Virus record (IMG/VR): IMGVR_UViG_3300029951_000012
Length of the DNA: 27,825 nucleotides
Strand: one strand, 5' to 3'
DNA from: an uncultured virus (IMG/VR IMGVR_UViG_3300029951_000012)
Lineage: Duplodnaviria > Heunggongvirae > Uroviricota > Caudoviricetes
Positions 3,115-25,399 of the stretch are shown in pieces. Positions within the stretch are counted from its first letter, which is position 1. Each line of letters opens with the position of its first letter. The notes under the pieces are model-generated. The model was not told where the DNA came from and ran no database searches. It saw nothing but the letters and a program-made list of their open reading frames with translations. Made by a program: the position numbers and the translations under genes.

Positions 3115-3267
3115 AAGGAAACCTCAAATTCAAGATTCATCCTCATGGCGTACCCTTCTGGGGTTTAGTCATGCAAGAAGCACTGCGGCGAATTGTGGCT
3201 TACTCCGTCAATCTTTAGGAACTGACTTCAGCCGTTCGCTTTGCAACTGTTACCGAATACATTACCA
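3115..3267 (-). promoter_or_regulatory. Extended -10 promoter and structured 5' leader of the capsid gene
   Basis: TGgTAATGT on the minus strand (3267-3259), followed by nested stems GCGAA/UUCGC, GGCU/AGCC and GUCAGUU/GAUUGAC. Confidence 0.5.
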
Positions 3268-3272
3268 CACTG

Positions 3273-4535
3273 CTACTTTTGACCCCACTGGACGGGGTTC
3301 TTGCGCCCGACAATGTATGCCTGGCGCTTCACAAGCATATGCTGTGGAGTCCGCGCAAGATCAACTTTCAGTCCCTGTGTCTGCGGTGCGCCAGCGATGC
3401 GCTCGTACTTGATTGCGCCCTCTACGGCTGGCCTGGCGGTCACAGCGGGTTTTTCCGCGACTGCCGCTGGCCTGCCCTTCCGCGCCGCCAGAACATCGCC
3501 CACAATCCGCTTGGCCGCGCCCTGAATAATCTTCTTATGTTCGGAATTGACGCGCATAACCCAAGATTTCTGGTTATTCGACTTGAGGTAAGCCTTGAGG
3601 TCGCGCTGGTAGGCGGAATTGATACTTACTCGCGCATTGATTTCTTCGCGCATGGCCGTCTCAATTCTTTTGTCTTCACCGGGCAGCAATTTTCCATTGC
3701 CGATAACTTTTTGCGTTTCGGAAATCATCAGATTTCGGGAAGTTGGAGCAATTGCATCGTTCCACTGCCTATCCCGCAGTTCCATCGCAGCATCTTCCTG
3801 ATTTGGCTGGGTCTGGGTGGCCTCTGGCTTCTTTGCCTCTGGCGAAACAATGGGCTTCCGCGCCATTGCAAAAATCTCCCCAAAAGCTCCTTTGATAGCC
3901 TTATAGCCTTCGATAAGTTGCTGCACGGAAGGGTCATCGCTCTGTTGCGGGATGATGCGGTCAAGCAACTTGAATTGCAGCGGCAAATCTCGTTCTGCAA
4001 AGTAGCCTTCCACAGCCTTTGCAACGAGGGTGGAATAGCCATCTGGGTTCACTTCCCAAAATTTATTAAATGCAGCCTGAACAAGTGCCGGAAATGCTGC
4101 GGGGAAGGTTTCAGCGATATGGCTGACAACATCGGGGTCGCCAGCCTCAATCTTATGGTCGAAATCACGATAAAACTGACGTTCACTGAGTGTATCTTCG
4201 ATGACCTGCTCAATCGGCACGGCATCGGGCGTCTCGGAGTCGGCAGAGAGCCGCTTTACTGACTCCAAAACAGCGTCAATGCCCTTCAGCCCTTCAGGAT
4301 GGCGCTTGCTCACCTCCGTGGAGTCATAGATGGCTTTACGAACTTGCGCTACGGTCTTAGGGTCTTTGCCCTGAAAGCTGTCTTTGATGGATTTCCATAA
4401 GGGGGCGCCAGAAAGAGCCTCGCCGCCGGCAGTTTCAGTTCCTTCGATGGGTTCAGCGCCCTCAACAGGCTCAGCGCCTTCTACTGGCTCAATTGCTTCT
4501 TCAATGGGGGCGTCTACGATTGCTTCTTCTGGCAT
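3273..4535 (-). CDS. Capsid scaffolding/assembly-like protein
   Basis: 420 aa with acidic N-terminus containing EPVEGA repeats, helical body and basic C-terminus; lies between portal and capsid genes. Confidence 0.6.
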   Translation of the reverse strand: MPEEAIVDAPIEEAIEPVEGAEPVEGAEPIEGTETAGGEALSGAPLWKSIKDSFQGKDPKTVAQVRKAIYDSTEVSKRHPEGLKGIDAVLESVKRLSADSETPDAVPIEQVIEDTLSERQFYRDFDHKIEAGDPDVVSHIAETFPAAFPALVQAAFNKFWEVNPDGYSTLVAKAVEGYFAERDLPLQFKLLDRIIPQQSDDPSVQQLIEGYKAIKGAFGEIFAMARKPIVSPEAKKPEATQTQPNQEDAAMELRDRQWNDAIAPTSRNLMISETQKVIGNGKLLPGEDKRIETAMREEINARVSINSAYQRDLKAYLKSNNQKSWVMRVNSEHKKIIQGAAKRIVGDVLAARKGRPAAVAEKPAVTARPAVEGAIKYERIAGAPQTQGLKVDLARTPQHMLVKRQAYIVGRKNPVQWGQK

Positions 4536-9092: not shown

Positions 9093-9421
9093 CAGTTCTC
9101 CTGTTGCTTCTCGCGCTTCATCTGTTCCGCATTAACCTGCTGCTCGAAGAGTCTCCGCACGTCGCCAGAGTTCTTTGCGTGAATAATACCATCATCCGGC
9201 TTTGCGGCTTGCAAACGGAGTTTTTCAACAAGATTTTCGTAGCGGTTCTGCCATTTGTTGGAATCTTGGAGATAGCCCTGCGCTTGGATGTTCATCTCAG
9301 CTAGTTTTGTGGCCCTGTCAGCCAACTCAGCCTGAGCATCGCGTAGATTCAGAGCAATCACAACGCGGCTCCAGCCCAGAAGCCCAGCGAGTACCGCAAG
9401 AATTACTGCCGCCCAGACCAT
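9092..9421 (-). CDS. Membrane-anchored coiled-coil protein
   Basis: N-terminal hydrophobic helix MVWAAVILAVLAGLLGW followed by a heptad-rich segment. Confidence 0.7.
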   Translation of the reverse strand: MVWAAVILAVLAGLLGWSRVVIALNLRDAQAELADRATKLAEMNIQAQGYLQDSNKWQNRYENLVEKLRLQAAKPDDGIIHAKNSGDVRRLFEQQVNAEQMKREKQQEN

Positions 9422-11052
9422 GCGCTTCCCCTCCGCCGCTTATTCTCTGCCTCGAACTTTAGCATCGCCATGCCCTTCGTATGCATCGGCTTGTCGCCAA
9501 GGCTATCATAGAACTCATGCGCCCTCACCGACAAAGGTGCTTGAAGGTTTGCCGTGTGCATCGAGTATGCCCAATAGCGCAGGAAATCACCTACGTCATC
9601 CGCCTTTGTGGGCTGCTTCCAAACATCCTCAGCGCGGCCCGGATGCTTCGTATCTCGAATAAGCATCGGAACTGCTTCAATCGTGTCCGTGCAGCGAGAA
9701 GAAATAAATATCAGCGGGGTCTTCAAAGAGTAACCCCCTGCTTCCTTATCAAAGTCGTCGTCCAGCCGCGTCGGGGCCATCTTTCCCGCCAGCACATCAG
9801 CCGTTTTCTTCATCATCGCGTACAAAAAGCGCCAACCGCCGATACGCCCGTTAGCCGCTTGTTCTGCCCACGGCAACCCCGCCAGCCGCAACTCTTGATT
9901 GATCGTATCCGCCGTACTGTGGCCTTTGGAGTCCTTTTCCCACGCGTCCACAGACAGAAAATAACGCTTCATCTGCTTGCGCTCGTTCTCGTCCATCATG
10001 CCGACCAACTGTCGGATTAACTCGCCTTGTTCTGTCTCCTGCACTACATGGTCGCGCGTGAGCACCCAAACTTCCACAGGCTCGTCAATCACAACCCCAA
10101 AAACTTCATGGAACAGCTTAGGCGCAACCTTCCCTCCAGTCCCCCAGCCGCACGCCGCATGATGAACGAAACCGTCGTCATGACCTGCCCATCTGGGCCA
10201 CCACGGTTGCACAAGTTTGGCCTCTTGCTGCGCCGTAAGTATCAGCTTCGATTCGTCCCAAACCCCGGCGAAATACTGCCCAGCGAAGCTATCGAACGAG
10301 CCGAGAAGATGGCCGGCGCGGAGACTCTGTGGCAGCGCATTAAGTTTGCGGCCTTCAGCCGTCCTATCTACGAATAGCTCGAATCGTTCTTCGCTGCTCA
10401 TCGCGTAGAACTGCTTTGCGGTCAATCCCAACCCACTGAACCATACGAAATTGTCCCACCCAAACATGTGCACAAACTCATAGTCGGTTGGTCGTTCTCC
10501 GCCATGAAAGCGCCGCTGTGCGAATACCCTTCTCAGGAACTCAGTACCCACACCGCCAGGATTGAAGAATAGCGCCGTTTTGCACTCACCCAAAGCTGTA
10601 TCCGGCCAGCGGTTGCAGGTGTGCATAATCTGCAATTCGTACTCGCTGAACTGCTCGGCTTGGTCTACAAAAAGGTCGTAATACTGCACACCCCAGAACT
10701 TACGATCCACTTCCTGCTGATTCTCGGCATAGGCAAACACGATGCGAGAGCCGTTGGGCAATCTAAATTCATGGTCGCCAGCTCGCCAGTAGTCGCGCAA
10801 CTCAGGCCACTCGCGCATGAATTCGTCCACATGGTTGCGCTTGACCTCATCCCACACACGCCGAACAATGCACCCATCCGTGCCGGGTCGGTTCTGGCGG
10901 CGGTCGAGCATGATGCGACGGATAGCAGCGCTCTTACCACCCGCACGACTTCCGCCTCCGCCAATCCACGTCGCAGCATCAGGCCCGGTGCGGTAAATGA
11001 GTTTTCCGAGTTCTAGTTGCTTCGGTTGGAGAGAGAGTGTGATTGGAGCCAT
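9403..11052 (-). CDS. terL: Terminase large subunit
   Basis: Walker A GGSRAGGKS, Walker B-like LFVDQAE, NPGG motif, RNase H-like nuclease residues (GHDDG, DDVGDFLRY). Confidence 0.92.
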   Translation of the reverse strand: MAPITLSLQPKQLELGKLIYRTGPDAATWIGGGGSRAGGKSAAIRRIMLDRRQNRPGTDGCIVRRVWDEVKRNHVDEFMREWPELRDYWRAGDHEFRLPNGSRIVFAYAENQQEVDRKFWGVQYYDLFVDQAEQFSEYELQIMHTCNRWPDTALGECKTALFFNPGGVGTEFLRRVFAQRRFHGGERPTDYEFVHMFGWDNFVWFSGLGLTAKQFYAMSSEERFELFVDRTAEGRKLNALPQSLRAGHLLGSFDSFAGQYFAGVWDESKLILTAQQEAKLVQPWWPRWAGHDDGFVHHAACGWGTGGKVAPKLFHEVFGVVIDEPVEVWVLTRDHVVQETEQGELIRQLVGMMDENERKQMKRYFLSVDAWEKDSKGHSTADTINQELRLAGLPWAEQAANGRIGGWRFLYAMMKKTADVLAGKMAPTRLDDDFDKEAGGYSLKTPLIFISSRCTDTIEAVPMLIRDTKHPGRAEDVWKQPTKADDVGDFLRYWAYSMHTANLQAPLSVRAHEFYDSLGDKPMHTKGMAMLKFEAENKRRRGSAWSGRQ

Positions 11053-11925: not shown

Positions 11926-12399
11926 CTATTCCTCCAGAATCGACTTCGTAACGAATTGTATAGGAGCGCCGTCCTTGCCGGTGTGCTCATTCAAAACCTT
12001 GTCCCCGTACTTGCGTGGGTTTAGTTGCCCGATATGCCTGGAGATGGTCTGCACAATCAGCGTAGATCGCGCCACATTATCCCCTGTACGCGTCTCGCGA
12101 CCATTCTTATCGCTTTCGGTTACAACTTCACCAAGTAATGGGGTTAGCGCATATTCGGTGCGCTCATCCGCAAGCATATCGGCTCGCATCTCACGCGCAC
12201 GCGCGGACTGTGCCATAAACTCTGGATTCTCTTCCATCCACTTGTAAATGGTTCCAGTGCAAGGGATTGTCTTGTTTGGGAATTCGTTTGCTAAGTCCTT
12301 GAGAATAGATCTCATACCTTTAACTTCAGAAGACCAACGGAAGCAAAGTTCATCCGCTATCTCTTGGTCGAAAGGAGTTTGAGGTCTACCGCCAGCCAT
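11926..12399 (-). CDS. terS: Terminase small subunit (Sf6/P22-like)
   Basis: MAGGRP..F...IADELC, IP..GTIYKW, ARARE..AD..ADE, LNPRKYGDK, EHTGKDGAPI motifs; upstream of terL. Confidence 0.9.
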   Translation of the reverse strand: MAGGRPQTPFDQEIADELCFRWSSEVKGMRSILKDLANEFPNKTIPCTGTIYKWMEENPEFMAQSARAREMRADMLADERTEYALTPLLGEVVTESDKNGRETRTGDNVARSTLIVQTISRHIGQLNPRKYGDKVLNEHTGKDGAPIQFVTKSILEE

Positions 12400-12480
12400 A
12401 GGGGCTAAGGATATCAGACAGCCACGAGAAAATAAATGCCATTTATCCCTTGACTCGCAGATAATTGATGGCTTATATTC
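12400..12480. promoter_or_regulatory. Divergent promoter region with palindromic operator-like site
   Basis: Rightward TTGACT-18-TATATT (12450-12479); leftward TTTATT-17-TATCCT with TGn, just before the terS ATG; perfect palindrome ATAAATG-C-CATTTAT at 12432-12446. Confidence 0.55.
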
Positions 12481-12500
12481 ACCACATGGAGGAAACAAAC

Positions 12501-12752
12501 ATGACACTCGATGAGCAGATTATAAAGGCAGGAAAGGCCACCGCACAGGCATTACGCGCTGTTCGTGATGCACGCAACGCTTCCCAACTTCAACATGGTG
12601 GGGCTAACTTCAGCAAGACTACAGACGCGCTCAATACGGTTGCTGACCAAATGGCAGAGCTTTATGAGAGGTTGGAACTTGAGATTGCAGCTTCCAATCG
12701 TAGCGAGGTTCAGGCGCACTCGAACAAGATGGAATCTCTCACATGCGCATAA
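12501..12752 (+). CDS. Hypothetical helical protein
   Basis: GGAGG SD then MTLDEQIIKAG..., 83 aa. Confidence 0.7.
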   Translation: MTLDEQIIKAGKATAQALRAVRDARNASQLQHGGANFSKTTDALNTVADQMAELYERLELEIAASNRSEVQAHSNKMESLTCA

Positions 12753-13799: not shown

Positions 13800-14237
13800 A
13801 TGGACGCTCCGAACACACTCCAGCAAGCAATAGTCTACTTCTCTGACCCCGACCGGGCCTTCCAATACGCGCTGAATCTGCGCTGGCCGGATGGTCTGGT
13901 AACTTGCCCGCGCTGCGGCTCCGATAAGCACTCATTCGTGAAGACCCGCCGACTCTGGCACTGCAAGGGCTGTAAAAAGCAGTTCACCCTCAAAGTCGGC
14001 ACAGTGTTCGAGGATAGCCCGCTGGGACTCGACAAATGGATGTGTGCGTTTTGGATGCTCTGTAATTGCAGGAATGGAGTCAGTTCGTGTGAGGTCGCCC
14101 GCGCTCTGGATATCACGCAAAAATCGGCTTGGTTCTTGCTTCATAGAATCCGCGAGGCCATGACCGATAAGACTGGAACGAAGCTCGGCAATGTTGGCCC
14201 TGTCGAAGTATTCGTGTTTCATAATGGCCTCACCTAA
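13800..14237 (+). pseudogene. Truncated IS1595 transposase (zinc ribbon + HTH, no DDE domain)
   Basis: RWPDG..CPRCG...W.CKGC.KQFT..VGTVFEDS.L.L.KW...GVSS....R.L.ITQKSAWF..HRIR. Similarity ends at GPVEV, immediately before the catalytic D of the usual VEVDE motif. Confidence 0.9.
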
Positions 14238-16640: not shown

Positions 16641-16705
16641 ACTGTAATTATTTTAGAGAAAGATGTCAAGGGGGTATTGACATGTCCAATCACATCGGCT
16701 AAATT
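16641..16705. promoter_or_regulatory. Back-to-back sigma70 promoters
   Basis: Rightward TTGACA(16677-82)-17-TAAATT(16700-05); leftward TTGACA(16669-64)-17-TACAGT(16646-41). Confidence 0.85.
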
Positions 16706-22083: not shown

Positions 22084-22262
22084 AGCGCAAAGTTCTTTCG
22101 ATGAGGTTTTATCGGGTTAGGTGTAAGCCGGGTTATGGGTCGGTGATGATGGAGTTGGAGTGCGGCCACACGCTCGGACGCAAGCAGAGCGAGGCTAAGA
22201 ATGTCGTGCCTGGCGTTTCGATGGTCACTTGCAGGCAATGCGAACCACAGGAGAAGCGATGA
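22080..22262 (+). CDS. Small zinc-ribbon protein (LECGH...CRQC)
   Basis: 60 aa, GTGA overlap. Confidence 0.65.
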   Translation: MKRKVLSMRFYRVRCKPGYGSVMMELECGHTLGRKQSEAKNVVPGVSMVTCRQCEPQEKR

Positions 22263-22621
22263 GCGAGCCTACACCTCAGCACTCAAAATGGGTACGCATG
22301 ACCGAACCAGAATTACGCACACTCGTCGAGCAATTGGAAGAACTCGTTGCCGCCGCTAACCTGCGAGCAGACCAAGCAGAAGAACATGCTGACAGGTTAG
22401 GCGCGCGCGTCGATCAACTGCAAGCGGAAGTCGATACGCTCAACTTCAAAGCGAAGGCAGCTTCCCCAGCCCTATGCTTCCAAAGGGCGCTTGAGGCGGT
22501 GTGTGCGCTTGACCGTGAGGACAATCGCTTCAAGCAATCGCTCTATGCGGATTGCGAGCAAGCTATCCAGCGTTTGATTGACAGCACCAAGCCAGCAGAT
22601 ACTTTGCTCTGCTCGGATTGA
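22259..22621 (+). CDS. Hypothetical coiled-coil protein
   Basis: MSEPTPQ..., ATGA overlap, AGGAG SD. Confidence 0.65.
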   Translation: MSEPTPQHSKWVRMTEPELRTLVEQLEELVAAANLRADQAEEHADRLGARVDQLQAEVDTLNFKAKAASPALCFQRALEAVCALDREDNRFKQSLYADCEQAIQRLIDSTKPADTLLCSD

Positions 22622-23087: not shown

Positions 23088-23305
23088 TGCTTCCCGAACT
23101 CAGCAAGCCGCTCTGGATTCCGCCCGCGCCCGGGAAGTCATCCAAGCACTGCAACAGCGTAGCGAACGCAGGCACAGGGAAGCGTCTTATTTACGCCTAC
23201 TGCACCAAACCACGCGGGCATGAGGATGAGACTGAGCACTATGATGGCGTGCGTAATTTTAGATGGTCAGCACCGCTTTTGTTCTGGAGTGATTTTATGC
23301 CATGA
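23084..23305 (+). CDS. Small C...C....GH....H metal-binding protein
   Basis: MMLPELSKP..., ATGA overlap. Confidence 0.55.
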   Translation: MMLPELSKPLWIPPAPGKSSKHCNSVANAGTGKRLIYAYCTKPRGHEDETEHYDGVRNFRWSAPLLFWSDFMP

Positions 23306-23419
23306 TTTTGGACGCAAGAAAAGCCGCCAGTTTTGACGGCATGTTTCCTGCAAAGAAATAGGTGAGGAAAGTTCCCCTCACCTGAAGTAGAAGTACAAAT
23401 CTCACACTAAGGATAACTA

Positions 23420-23716
23420 ATGGCAACCAAGAAAAACAAATACGTGATCGTTCGCACTTACTCTGCGGGCGTATTCGCTGGCAATCTCGAATCCCGCGCA
23501 GGGCAAGAGGTTGTTCTGACCGATGCACGCCGTCTGTGGTATTGGACTGGCGCTGCATCTCTCTCGCAACTCGCTGTATCGGGAACTTCTTCCCCAAAAA
23601 CCTGCAAGTTTCCTACTCCTGTTCCGCGCGTTGAATTGCTCCAGGCAATTGAAATCCTCGACGTAACGCCGGACGCCGAGAAATCCATCAAGGAAGTGCC
23701 AGAGTGGAAGCAGTAG
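23420..23716 (+). CDS. DUF6948-like phage protein
   Basis: YVIVRTYSAGVFAG...V.L.DARRLWYW.GA.SLSQLA..G signature, recalled from the family. Confidence 0.8.
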   Translation: MATKKNKYVIVRTYSAGVFAGNLESRAGQEVVLTDARRLWYWTGAASLSQLAVSGTSSPKTCKFPTPVPRVELLQAIEILDVTPDAEKSIKEVPEWKQ

Positions 23717-24033
23717 ACCAAAAAGTGGGCTCCGGCTCCGGCTCCGGCTCCGGCTACGGCGACGGCTACGGCGACGGCTACGGCGACGGCTACGGCTCCG
23801 GCTCCGGCTCCGGCGACGGCTACGGCTCCGGCTCCGGCGACGGCTACGGCTCCGGCTCCGGCTCCGGCTACGGCTCCGGCTACGGCTCCGGCTACGGCTA
23901 CGGCTACGGCTACGGCGACGGCTCCGGCTACGGCTCCGGCTACGGCGACGGCGACGGCTCCGGCTACGGCTACGGCGACGGCTCCGGCTACGGCTCCGGC
24001 TACGGCGACGGCGACGGCTCCGGCAGGGGTTAA
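23704..24033 (+). CDS. Glycine-rich (GS/GY/GD)n repeat protein
   Basis: GTG start with AGGA SD, overlaps the DUF6948 stop, followed by a terminator. Confidence 0.7.
   Translation: MEAVDQKVGSGSGSGSGYGDGYGDGYGDGYGSGSGSGDGYGSGSGDGYGSGSGSGYGSGYGSGYGYGYGYGDGSGYGSGYGDGDGSGYGYGDGSGYGSGYGDGDGSGRG
23728..24021 (+). repeat. Tandem hexamer array GGC(TC/TA/GA)C x49
   Basis: Only three units (GGCTCC, GGCTAC, GGCGAC) over 294 bp. Confidence 0.97.
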
Positions 24034-24072
24034 ACAACAGCCGCCCCAAAGTACGGGGCGGCGTTTTACTTT
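24034..24072. terminator. Intrinsic terminator, probably bidirectional
   Basis: GCCGCCCC(24040-47)-aaagtac-GGGGCGGC(24055-62); GTTTTACTTT tail on plus and TGTTGTTT tail on minus. Confidence 0.8.
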
Positions 24073-24141
24073 GAATTGTGCGGGTCTGCCGGTTCAGCAC
24101 GCCGGAAGATTGCTAAGGTCTATCGGGGAAGACAAACCCGC
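24035..24141 (-). ncRNA. Candidate ~105-nt antisense-type small RNA
   Basis: Minus-strand promoter TTGACA-17-CAAGAT; 11-bp closing stem GCGGGUUUGUC/GGCAGACCCGC that pairs fully (2 G-U) only on minus; ends in the terminator. Confidence 0.55.
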
Positions 24142-24147
24142 AGAATT

Positions 24148-24179
24148 ATCTTGACAGAGTATCGGCTATATGTCAATCT
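24148..24179. promoter_or_regulatory. Symmetric overlapping bidirectional promoter
   Basis: Plus: TTGACA(24151-56)-17-CAATCT(24174-79) with TGn. Minus: TTGACA(24176-71)-17-CAAGAT(24153-48) with TGn. Both -10 boxes are imperfect. Confidence 0.6.
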
Positions 24180-24185
24180 GTCGTT

Positions 24186-24492
24186 GCTAAGGTGTATCGG
24201 AATCACAAAACAACGTGACGGTTTGGTTCGCAAGACTCCTACCTCCGAAACATAAAAACAACGGCTTGCTTTTGCAGTAAGGTCTACTGGAAATAGGCAC
24301 CAGATGTTCGTAACAAGCGCATAACCGTGGCTCCGGGCTGGTAGTGAATCCAGCGATACCCCTACGTCCACGTCCTATGGCACAGCCGCAAGGCTAATAA
24401 ATGCGCCCCTGTTGCGAACAAGAGACTAGCCGATGCACCGAGTAAGACTCACCCACAGCACACTACTAAGTGCCGAGGGATGGGGTTTGTCT
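24186..24492 (+). ncRNA. Candidate ~300-nt multi-stem structured RNA or leader
   Basis: Nested long-range stems 24191-200/24430-39, 24305-15/24410-20, 24317-22/24401-06, 24326-30/24368-72; GNRA hairpin AGCC-GCAA-GGCT; G-U pairs favour the plus strand; no credible ORF. Confidence 0.6.
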
Positions 24493-24515
24493 AAATCTTG
24501 TTTTGGAGGAATGTA

Positions 24516-24785
24516 ATGAGCATGAGCGATTACAGAAGGCCAGCCGATTACCAAATCACCAAGCATTACCGTTGCGGTGGGTGCGGCAGAGAAATCGAGG
24601 TCGAGTCTTGCTACTCGCCCGCACTGTGTTGCGGAATGGAACCGCAATCAACTGGTGAATCATATCCCGCTAACTCCGATGATTGGCACGAGGAGCGCGA
24701 TAACGTCAACGATGAATTCAGGAACAGGCGGAGGCGAAATGAAAACTATCTGTTGGAATTGCGGAAACTATATCGTCAAGACTAA
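24516..24785 (+). CDS. Zinc-ribbon protein (YRCGGCG...CCG)
   Basis: GGAGGA SD, MSMSDY... Confidence 0.7.
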   Translation: MSMSDYRRPADYQITKHYRCGGCGREIEVESCYSPALCCGMEPQSTGESYPANSDDWHEERDNVNDEFRNRRRRNENYLLELRKLYRQD

Positions 24786-24897
24786 GGATGATGATTATCG
24801 GGATTGGCGGCACCAGGAAAGCGGCTCAATTTACTGCCCAAAGGTGCGTGGAAAGAAGCAGACCTCAGCCATACCCAAATCGGAGGTGGCAAAATGA
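24739..24897 (+). CDS. Small CxxC...WxH...C protein
   Basis: GGAGG SD, MKTICWNCG... Confidence 0.65.
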   Translation: MKTICWNCGNYIVKTKDDDYRDWRHQESGSIYCPKVRGKKQTSAIPKSEVAK

Positions 24898-25040
24898 AAA
24901 GATTCAAGGCCACAATCCGCGCGGTATGGTTCTTCTTTCGCGTCCTCTGGCGCAGAGAGTATATTGGGCGCGTTGGTATTGGCGAATCGCTTCATTGTTC
25001 GGGCGTTATCTTTGACTTGTGGATGGGACGCTTCAAATGA
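24894..25040 (+). CDS. Small aromatic-rich protein (48 aa)
   Basis: GGAGGT SD, ATGA overlaps on both sides. Confidence 0.6.
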   Translation: MKRFKATIRAVWFFFRVLWRREYIGRVGIGESLHCSGVIFDLWMGRFK

Positions 25041-25399
25041 CCCCTCTGGACATCTACAAAGCCTACCCTCGCCAGATAGCTCGCCTTGACGCGCTGAAGG
25101 CCATAGAAAAGGCCGTGGTGCGATTGATGGGAGGGGAGCGAGACGGAACCACCCTCACGCGTTCCTACGCGCTGGCAACGCTAATGAAGGCCGTAGCCGA
25201 ATATGCCCGCTCCACCTGCGGTAAGGAAAGAGAATTTATACCCTATCCCGCGACATGGTTCAATCGCGGCCAGTATCTTGACGAACCAGAGATTCCAGCC
25301 GCCACTGAGGCATCGCTAGGAATGTATCGCGGGCCTGATTGCAACACTCCCGAAGAGTGGGAGCAGATTCGCCAAAAGGTAAACAGACGCACCAACTGA
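25037..25399 (+). CDS. Phage replication-initiator-like protein, C-terminal domain only
   Basis: IYKAYPR....DA.KAI...FIPYPATWFN...Y.DE matches the YPRK...P.P.TWLN..RW.DE C-terminal domain of phage replication proteins; no N-terminal HTH. Confidence 0.7.
   Translation: MTPLDIYKAYPRQIARLDALKAIEKAVVRLMGGERDGTTLTRSYALATLMKAVAEYARSTCGKEREFIPYPATWFNRGQYLDEPEIPAATEASLGMYRGPDCNTPEEWEQIRQKVNRRTN

Follow-up and report, generated by a model that had tools for sequence, protein, structure and literature searches.

A gene-free 450-nt region ahead of an early operon of an uncultured tailed phage, tentatively read as a promoter and folded leader

Introduction

Structured 5′ leaders and other cis-acting control RNAs of phage early operons are exemplified by the lambda N leader with nutL and by the put RNAs of HK022. 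Folded transcripts of some hundred nucleotides also act as R-loop primers upstream of replication functions, as in ColE1 RNA II and T4 oriF-oriG. The origins of lambda and of plasmids carry closely spaced iterons. Three ori types are described for c2 (Ceduovirus), with a promoter-flanked, ORF-free ori and a non-coding PE1-T transcript (PMC7150918). The c2 ori region lies between the divergent early and late blocks, is flanked by two mapped promoters and supports plasmid replication (PMC7150918).

Here, we analysed a gene-free region located in a 27,825-nt stretch of DNA (hereafter, the window; IMG/VR record IMGVR_UViG_3300029951_000012) from an uncultured tailed phage. An initial annotation proposed that positions 24186–24492 encode a multi-branched structured RNA of unrecognised type, possibly a replication primer or R-loop-forming RNA, a ribozyme or a riboswitch-like leader. 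Like the lambda and HK022 leaders, the region is predicted to yield a promoter-proximal, untranslated, folded sense RNA ahead of the gene that opens an early operon.

Results

Genomic setting of the gap

The large and small terminase genes of the phage were located on the − strand (9403–11052 and 11926–12507), and a + strand run of early genes, including a PD-(D/E)XK exonuclease and several PHROGs without known function, extended from ~17.3 kb. The terminase shared 22–27% identity with those of the nearest named phages (4 records), which are therefore very distant. The leftward and rightward gene blocks meet at 16641–16705, where we observed back-to-back promoter-like sites, each scoring 10/12 (TTGACA/17/TAAATT on the + strand and TTGACA/17/TACAGT on the − strand). 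This is probably the main switch region of the phage.

Positions 24066–24515 (450 nt) contained no credible gene and separated two early operons. The lowest G+C content of the neighbourhood, 0.455, was found inside this gap, at 24100–24299, and two AAAACAACG tracts were also present. The main features of the gap and its borders are as follows:

24040–24062, + strand: intrinsic terminator, 8 G-C pairs followed by GTTTTACTTT; hairpin energy −19.3 kcal/mol
24110–24126, + strand: repeat copy 1, 17 nt, TTGCTAAGGTSTATCGG
24130–24139 / 24483–24492, + strand: perfect 10-nt inverted repeat with AGACAAACCC as the 5′ arm; pairing probability 0.24–0.99, depending on context
24151–24179, + strand: promoter-like site, TTGACA (24151–24156), a 17-nt spacer ending in TGT (24171–24173) and CAATCT (24174–24179)
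24184–24200, + strand: repeat copy 2, 17 nt, TTGCTAAGGTSTATCGG, which shares positions with both the 5′ arm of the outer helix (24191–24200) and the predicted start of the RNA
24186–24492, + strand: candidate RNA of the initial annotation, a leader domain plus a 3′ hairpin
24272–24290, + strand: repeat copy 3, degenerate, TTGCAGTAAGGTCTACTGG, containing the CAGUA/UACUG hairpin
24448–24492, + strand: interrupted 12-bp hairpin (24448–24484, −14.6 kcal/mol) followed by GUUUGUCU
24505–24518, + strand: GGAGG (24505–24509) followed by the start codon (ATG, 24516) of the downstream gene nearest to the gap, which encodes an 89-aa four-cysteine zinc-ribbon protein

The terminator at 24040–24062, which scored on the − strand too, ends the upstream operon. 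Upstream of it lie a DUF6948 gene (23420–23716) and a Gly-X ORF (23704–24033) built of GGC-NNC hexamers that encode Gly-Ser/Tyr/Asp repeats; the ORF overlaps the end of the DUF6948 gene. The two form a conserved phage cassette, as the Gly-X repeat follows the DUF6948 gene in 64 of 77 other loci. In the window, L004 and L005, the repeat ORF starts inside the last DUF6948 codons and has a similar short N-terminus (VEAV, MEAV, MARV). In 22 of the 77 loci the contig ends at most 600 nt past the DUF6948 gene; breaks of the assembly within the repeat are the probable cause. A literature search for DUF6948 by name found no paper.

On the other side of the gap, GGAGG lies 6 nt before the ATG at 24516, on the same strand as the gap element. 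The product of this gene has four invariant cysteines and 14 homologues with 61–75% identity. Members of the family (24516–24785, alignment A1) are 72–89 residues long, with the four invariant Cys residues and the signature YRRPADYQ ... ESYPANSDDWHEERDNVND, and the family had no Pfam or PHROG match. In other phages, relatives of the gene occur in early recombination/replication modules, with ERF and Gp157 upstream. In one relative locus (L106), a full ISXO2-like transposase (3236–4306) directly follows the homologue. Elsewhere in the window, a 145-aa protein (13800–14237) contains only the zinc-ribbon domain of an IS1595-type transposase (E 8e-16). Further downstream of the gap, a 120-aa protein (25037–25399) matched the replication-initiator PHROGs phrog_270 (E 7e-9) and phrog_9474 (E 6e-8). 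The gap is thereby placed ~500 nt upstream of an initiator-like gene.

Coding potential and expression

The two longer ORFs of the gap, of 59 aa (+, 24076–24255) and 83 aa (−, 24120–24371), start at TTG and GTG with no ribosome-binding site before them, and neither had a Pfam match. The 83-aa ORF had no homologue in the protein collection. Neither was present among ~15 billion called proteins, where the neighbouring 24516 gene was found on 7 contigs, the longest of 89,825 nt. With no Pfam match to either ORF and neither ever called as a gene, the assignment of 24066–24515 as non-coding was upheld. We also observed a 27-codon ORF (24433–24516) with no clear ribosome-binding site before its start; its TAA stop and the start codon of the 24516 gene overlap as TAATG (24514–24518).

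Public RNA runs were uninformative on transcription of the gap. All 24 runs listed contained 0.11–0.12 of the sampled words, and the shared words probably derive from the tandem repeat at 23722–24030. When contigs of four runs (X1, X4, X18 and X14) were mapped with this repeat skipped, nothing was placed on 23300–25232; the sole piece placed was a 38-letter part of an X14 contig at 25233–25270, in coding sequence.

Promoter-like site and direct repeats

In the site at 24151–24179, the −35 hexamer is perfect and the −10 element, though TG-extended, is poor. The site scores 8/12, below the 9/12 threshold of the promoter scan, which therefore did not list it. The RNA start predicted from this site, ~24186, coincides with the start of the candidate RNA. 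TGTCAA (24171–24176) and the −35 hexamer together form a 6-nt palindrome. Other TTGACA-based sites of the phage scored 10/12, at 16677 (+) and 16669 (−), and a sigma-70-type host is therefore plausible.

The first two repeat copies are 74 nt apart and the third lies 90 nt further, with 13–17 nt alike. The core TAAGGTSTA, a motif defined after it had been seen, occurs three times in the whole window, always in the gap and on the + strand; the expected number was 0.07, and none of 100 shuffles reached this count. The 17-nt motif gave six single-copy matches in IMG/VR, all in unrelated sequence and close to the chance estimate for 16 fixed bases, and an nhmmer search with the repeat motif recovered nothing past the seeded motif (best E 0.039). 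Readings of the motif as a sigma-54 promoter, a CRISPR-like repeat, a tetraloop-receptor, a DnaA-box or an integron attC were judged by eye and dropped because the spacing or key bases do not fit. The copies were also considered as equivalent hairpins with AGGUS loops; this was rejected, as copy 3 forms five pairs and copies 1 and 2 form 4/5. No covariation can be seen among these hairpins because copies 1 and 2 are identical to each other.

Predicted fold

Every helix string named in the initial annotation was found at the expected position, and most of the helices were present in the RNAfold minimum-energy structure. The elements are listed below:

24191–24200 / 24430–24439, + strand: outer helix, GGUGUAUCGG (24191) with CCGAUGCACC (24430)
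24203–24218, + strand: hairpin UCAC (24203) with GUGA (24215), loop AAAACAAC; pairing probability 0.64–0.96
24207 and 24255, + strand: the two occurrences of AAAACAAC
24275–24289, + strand: hairpin CAGUA (24275) with UACUG (24285); pairing probability 0.75–0.96
24305–24315 / 24410–24420, + strand: UGUUCGUAACA (24305) with UGUUGCGAACA (24410)
24317–24322 / 24401–24406, + strand: GCGCAU (24317) with AUGCGC (24401)
24326 / 24368, + strand: CGUGG with CCACG
24337 / 24350, + strand: GCUGG with CCAGC
24384–24395, + strand: hairpin with a GCAA loop (24388)
24305–24420, + strand: best-supported domain, an 11-bp and a 6-bp stem closing a multi-branch loop; pairing probability 0.98
24458 / 24470, + strand: GCAC with GUGC
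24475, + strand: G-rich run GAGGGATGGGG

Pairing probabilities were computed in four sequence contexts. The multi-branch loop of the 24305–24420 domain holds the hairpins 24337–24354 and 24384–24395, and high values were obtained in all four contexts for 24305/24420 (0.98), 24317/24406 (0.98), 24337/24354 (0.85) and 24384/24395 (0.86). The pair 24458/24473 reached 0.99–1.0 in the three contexts that contain it. The CGUGG/CCACG helix did not exceed 0.38.

The outer helix 24191/24439 had a probability of 0.66–1.0 only with an RNA start near 24186, and of 0.00 once upstream sequence was added. With that addition, the 5′ half refolds completely: GUAUCGGCUA (24159–24168) pairs with UAGCCGAUGC (24427–24436), which overlaps the 3′ arm of the outer helix and replaces that helix. 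The inverted repeat 24130–24139/24483–24492 would form the outermost helix if the RNA start lies upstream of 24130, and it is present in the minimum-energy fold of 24126–24496. At the 3′ end, the hairpin and U-run of 24448–24492 are a candidate weak terminator or attenuator, which the terminator scan omits. The GGAGG before 24516 is partly paired, and alternative pairings exist, none of them tied to any ligand.

Folding statistics

The candidate RNA (24186–24492) gave a z-score of −1.90 on the + strand, where 4 of 100 shuffles folded equally well; the − strand gave −1.88. Among 79 background windows of 300 nt from the same phage (20 shuffles per window; scan up to 11.7 kb), the mean was −0.22 with a standard deviation of 1.17; five windows were at or below −2.0, and the minimum was −3.58. 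The interval is thus slightly better folded than its shuffles and ordinary for its genome, where 5 of 79 windows were as low. The view that its structure goes far past the needs of a plain leader was not borne out. In terms of a structured RNA of unrecognised type, the helices are present as sequence, but unusual structure (z −1.90, ordinary for the genome) was not established.

Other intervals gave a mixed picture. The inner domain (24303–24422) reached −2.81 on the + strand (3/200 shuffles as good) and −2.00 on the − strand (9/200), the whole gap (24064–24516) reached −3.21, and the 5′ half alone (24066–24302) was unremarkable at −1.38. The interval 24126–24496, picked post hoc after its terminal inverted repeat had been seen, scored −4.05 on the + strand and −3.15 on the − strand, with 0/100 shuffles as good on each. 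On a fixed grid of 56 sense-strand windows of 371 nt (17–27.8 kb, 15 shuffles), the two windows covering the gap scored −1.5 and −1.59. The grid minimum of −3.13 fell at 24600–24970, in coding sequence shortly past the gap, where small zinc-ribbon ORFs overlap one another. Uninterrupted helices of at least 11 bp formed within 130 nt numbered 40 on the + strand and 55 on the − strand of the whole window. The longest local helix in the window, of 18 uninterrupted base pairs (G-U allowed), was located at 22395–22514, inside the ORF 22229–22621.

The excess of nested self-complementarity in the gap is real and has a slight sense-strand preference, but it is too weak to stand without comparative support.

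Comparison with other genomes

Searching 50,697 phage records and 72,556 plasmids with blastn set for distant matches gave no match to the gap. IMG/VR contained only one record with the sequence (G001), which is 100% identical to window positions 1635–24664 and is therefore the same assembly; an exact 28-mer from the gap retrieved only this same record. An independent metagenome contig of 1,164 nt (L082) corresponds to window positions 24131–25294 with one substitution, at 24959, outside the gap. It begins at 24131, the second base of the left arm (24130–24139) of the inverted repeat; this may be a low-coverage coincidence or a strain-variable junction.

The comparison covered 77 other loci with a DUF6948 gene, 26 zinc-ribbon relatives (22 from metagenomes and 4 from IMG/VR) and one genome locus. 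Two contigs that are copies of the same phage (L082 and L105) were left out of the 26. Searches of the relative loci with blastn and nhmmer returned self copies only, and tblastx against 110 loci (496 kb) detected no translated similarity (best E 0.34). A covariance model built from the annotated helices (R1; 260 positions, 45 pairs) matched only the phage itself over 99 loci (481 kb, the set without L106–L117), the best non-self E being 5.9. Locus searches in IMG/VR with the 24516 and 25037 proteins gave self matches or none.

The arrangement of the flanking genes differed as well. Upstream sequence could be mapped in 18 loci, and in each of them another ORF stands before the zinc-ribbon gene with no long gap. 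After the DUF6948/Gly-X cassette, the next ORF (at least 70 aa) begins at a median distance of 48 nt, and 300 nt or more were found in 3/42 loci. Each flanking gene is a shuffled cassette, which in other phages sits among unrelated neighbours. By sequence comparison, the gap is an orphan, represented by same-phage copies only in the collections searched and in ~110 flanking-gene loci.

Known RNA classes and element types

With Rfam 15 at gathering thresholds, the whole window gave no match to riboswitches, ribozymes, RNase P RNA, 6S RNA, Y RNA or pRNA, nor to C4, CRISPR-DR, group I/II introns or large phage-borne RNAs. At E ≤ 10 over 23900–24700, two junk matches appeared, both outside 24186–24492. 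ARAGORN predicted no gene in the window. The candidate RNA is accordingly not a tRNA or tmRNA, nor an RNase P RNA, in line with the initial annotation, which did not recognise it as any of these. The suggestion of a ribozyme or riboswitch fared poorly: no Rfam match was obtained at E ≤ 10, and the downstream genes encode small zinc-ribbon proteins and not metabolic enzymes. A riboswitch found no further backing, with no Rfam aptamer and none of the 26 relative loci of the downstream gene matching the gap.

Several DNA elements were also considered. The three repeats, 74 and 90 nt apart with a minimum G+C content of 0.455, do not resemble an iteron-type origin. A CRISPR mini-array would have near-identical repeats of 28–37 nt with a regular period of 60–75 nt, and belong to a known repeat family; here, 17 nt are common to two copies, the third copy is degenerate and 90 nt away, and no CRISPR-DR match was found at E ≤ 10. 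The inverted repeat matches at 10/10 positions (24130–24139 and 24483–24492) and bounds a 363-bp unit, as the terminal inverted repeats of a MITE do. By chance, a 450-nt stretch should contain about 0.1 such 10-nt pairs (estimated as 4⁻¹⁰ × ~10⁵ position pairs). No target-site duplication is present at 24129/24493, where the flanks GGGGA and AAATC differ, and no related MITE-like copy was found in IMG/VR, phage records or plasmids. A search for the 10-nt ends with 328–358 nt between them gave two other places in IMG/VR, one of them coding and the other an iteron field, both unrelated to the gap, and a MITE-like insertion was rejected. The iteron field (positions 1–961 of the 83,304-nt IMG/VR contig L121) has dense TTAGACAAACC-type repeats flanking an AT-rich centre, with direct orientation in one flank and inverted orientation in the opposite flank. 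It has the textbook look of an origin or partition site and belongs to an unrelated phage, reached as a chance match through the 10-mer AGACAAACCC.

Discussion

As the fold is modestly above chance and no relative was found, a promoter with a long untranslated leader is the most likely explanation of the gap, and not a proven new RNA class. We tentatively favour, with confidence that falls somewhat short of even, a promoter/operator region followed by a folded leader of ~330 nt that belongs to the next early/replication operon. The upstream operon would stop at the terminator 24040–24062, and a host sigma-70-type promoter (TTGACA at 24151, TGn-CAATCT at 24174) would start a + strand RNA at ~24186. 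If the RNA folds in vivo as predicted, its first ~255 nt would close through GGUGUAUCGG/CCGAUGCACC around the stable 24305–24420 domain. The weak hairpin and the U-rich run of 24448–24492 may govern what fraction of transcription or translation gets as far as the zinc-ribbon gene. The three TAAGGTSTA copies, at about −76, +1 and +87 relative to the start, would be candidate sites for a phage regulator acting on DNA or RNA.

This reading of the gap as a control region and leader is consistent with the terminator directly upstream, the next gene on the same strand with its GGAGG, and the absence of a credible gene in between. The perfect −35 hexamer and TG-extended −10 element at 17-nt spacing point in the same direction, as do the outer helix, probable (0.66–1.0) only with an RNA start at 24186, the slightly better folding of the sense strand (−2.81 vs −2.00 and −4.05 vs −3.15) and the TAAGGTSTA enrichment. 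Against it stand the 8/12 score of the promoter-like site, a fold at 24186–24492 that is ordinary for the genome and alike on both strands, the refolding of the 5′ half with upstream sequence, and a motif defined after being seen. Moreover, none of the 18 relatives of the downstream gene has such a leader, and the gene therefore does not need one.

It is also conceivable, though rather less probable, that the gap has no dedicated function and that an exchange of gene cassettes left it behind as a spacer or mosaic junction, its helices and repeats being chance or the residue of local duplication. Both flanks are shuffled cassettes, only 3/42 loci have at least 300 nt after DUF6948/Gly-X, and the gap is missing from every relative examined. 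A z-score of −1.9 on both strands, equal or lower values in coding sequence and the frequency of helices of at least 11 bp fit a spacer too. However, phage genomes leave little room between genes, and an operon that begins anew past a strong terminator needs a promoter somewhere in the gap. Chance also accounts poorly for three nested long-range helices (24130/24492; 24159/24436 or 24191/24439; 24305/24420) with z −4.05 and 0/100 shuffles as good, and for the strong motif enrichment.

We consider it unlikely, but worth weighing, that the gap is a transcription-activated phage ori, the main functional alternative, in which the folded non-coding transcript of an internal promoter opens or primes the DNA and the direct repeats serve as initiator sites. 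This corresponds to the replication primer or R-loop idea of the initial annotation. The gap lies ~500 nt upstream of the replication-initiator-like protein (phrog_270, phrog_9474), zinc-ribbon relatives are found in recombination/replication modules with ERF and Gp157 upstream, and the orphan status fits. The direct repeats, the two AAAACAACG tracts, the locally lowest G+C content of 0.455 and the G-rich GAGGGATGGGG at 24475 are compatible with an origin as well. A precedent is the c2 ori of Ceduovirus, which is ORF-free, promoter-flanked and transcribed and differs in sequence between related phages (PMC7150918). On the other hand, there are only three repeats, 74 and 90 nt apart, unlike closely spaced iterons, and no marked AT-rich unwinding stretch. 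The 120-aa initiator-like fragment is the sole replication gene identified in the window, and the promoter-like site of the candidate transcript scores 8/12, below the scan threshold. Both the leader and the origin are reasonable readings of an element that lies on the sense strand upstream of a replication-initiator-like gene, the origin less firmly.

A bolder proposal, which we regard as improbable, is that 24130/24186–24492 is a self-contained phage non-coding RNA of ~300–360 nt and of an undescribed class. It would have its own promoter and 5′/3′ pairing around a stable four-way core, and would prime or open a lineage-specific origin or act in trans via three UAAGGUSUA elements. The lack of relatives would follow from the lineage specificity of origin-type elements. 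Less probable still is a stand-alone small RNA of ~300 nt, from ~24186 to ~24492, acting in trans, for instance against a defence system or on targets in the host or a rival phage. The promoter-like site and the −14.6 kcal/mol hairpin with GUUUGUCU bound a unit that matches the annotated coordinates, and the architecture is closed at the 5′/3′ ends with pairing probabilities of up to 1.0. Yet the terminator scan did not pick up the interrupted hairpin at the 3′ end, the downstream operon would be left without its own promoter, and neither a family resemblance nor a second copy was found in Rfam, phages, plasmids, IMG/VR or the relative loci. Finally, it is very improbable that the gap encodes small proteins (59 aa on +, 83 aa on −, or the 27-aa upstream ORF 24433–24516): open frames exist and the TAATG overlap at 24514–24518 resembles translational coupling, but the longer ORFs start at TTG/GTG and have no ribosome-binding site, Pfam match or database record, the 83-aa ORF has no homologue, and no translated similarity was seen in relatives.

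If the fold is real, a large structured RNA lies just before phage replication genes, and a set of such cases could suggest that phages have a general and under-annotated means of starting or gating the expression of replication modules. The element alone, an orphan from one uncultured phage whose folding statistics are borderline, cannot carry a general claim. We must also note that the case is a caution, since hand-found helices in 300 nt are expected by chance.

In terms of known systems, the 363-bp unit with perfect 10-bp inverted-repeat ends, missing from relatives, is like a MITE; unlike MITEs, it has no visible target-site duplication and no second related copy in IMG/VR. The G-rich run near the 3′ part of the folded transcript is shared with the ColE1 and T4 primers, but the gap has no C-run/G-run pair, RNase H site, antisense partner of the RNA I kind or Rfam match. 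With the lambda and HK022 leaders it shares, in addition to its position, a hairpin and U-run just before the coding region; it differs from them in having no identified boxA/boxB or put-like two-stem motif and no antiterminator gene, and its predicted leader of ~330 nt is longer than those elements. Like the gap, the c2 ori lies next to early genes and comprises a few hundred bases free of ORFs, with an internal promoter, a sequence unshared even by related phages and a proposed folded non-coding transcript (PMC7150918). Unlike the c2 ori, the gap has flanks that run the same way and one weak promoter-like site.
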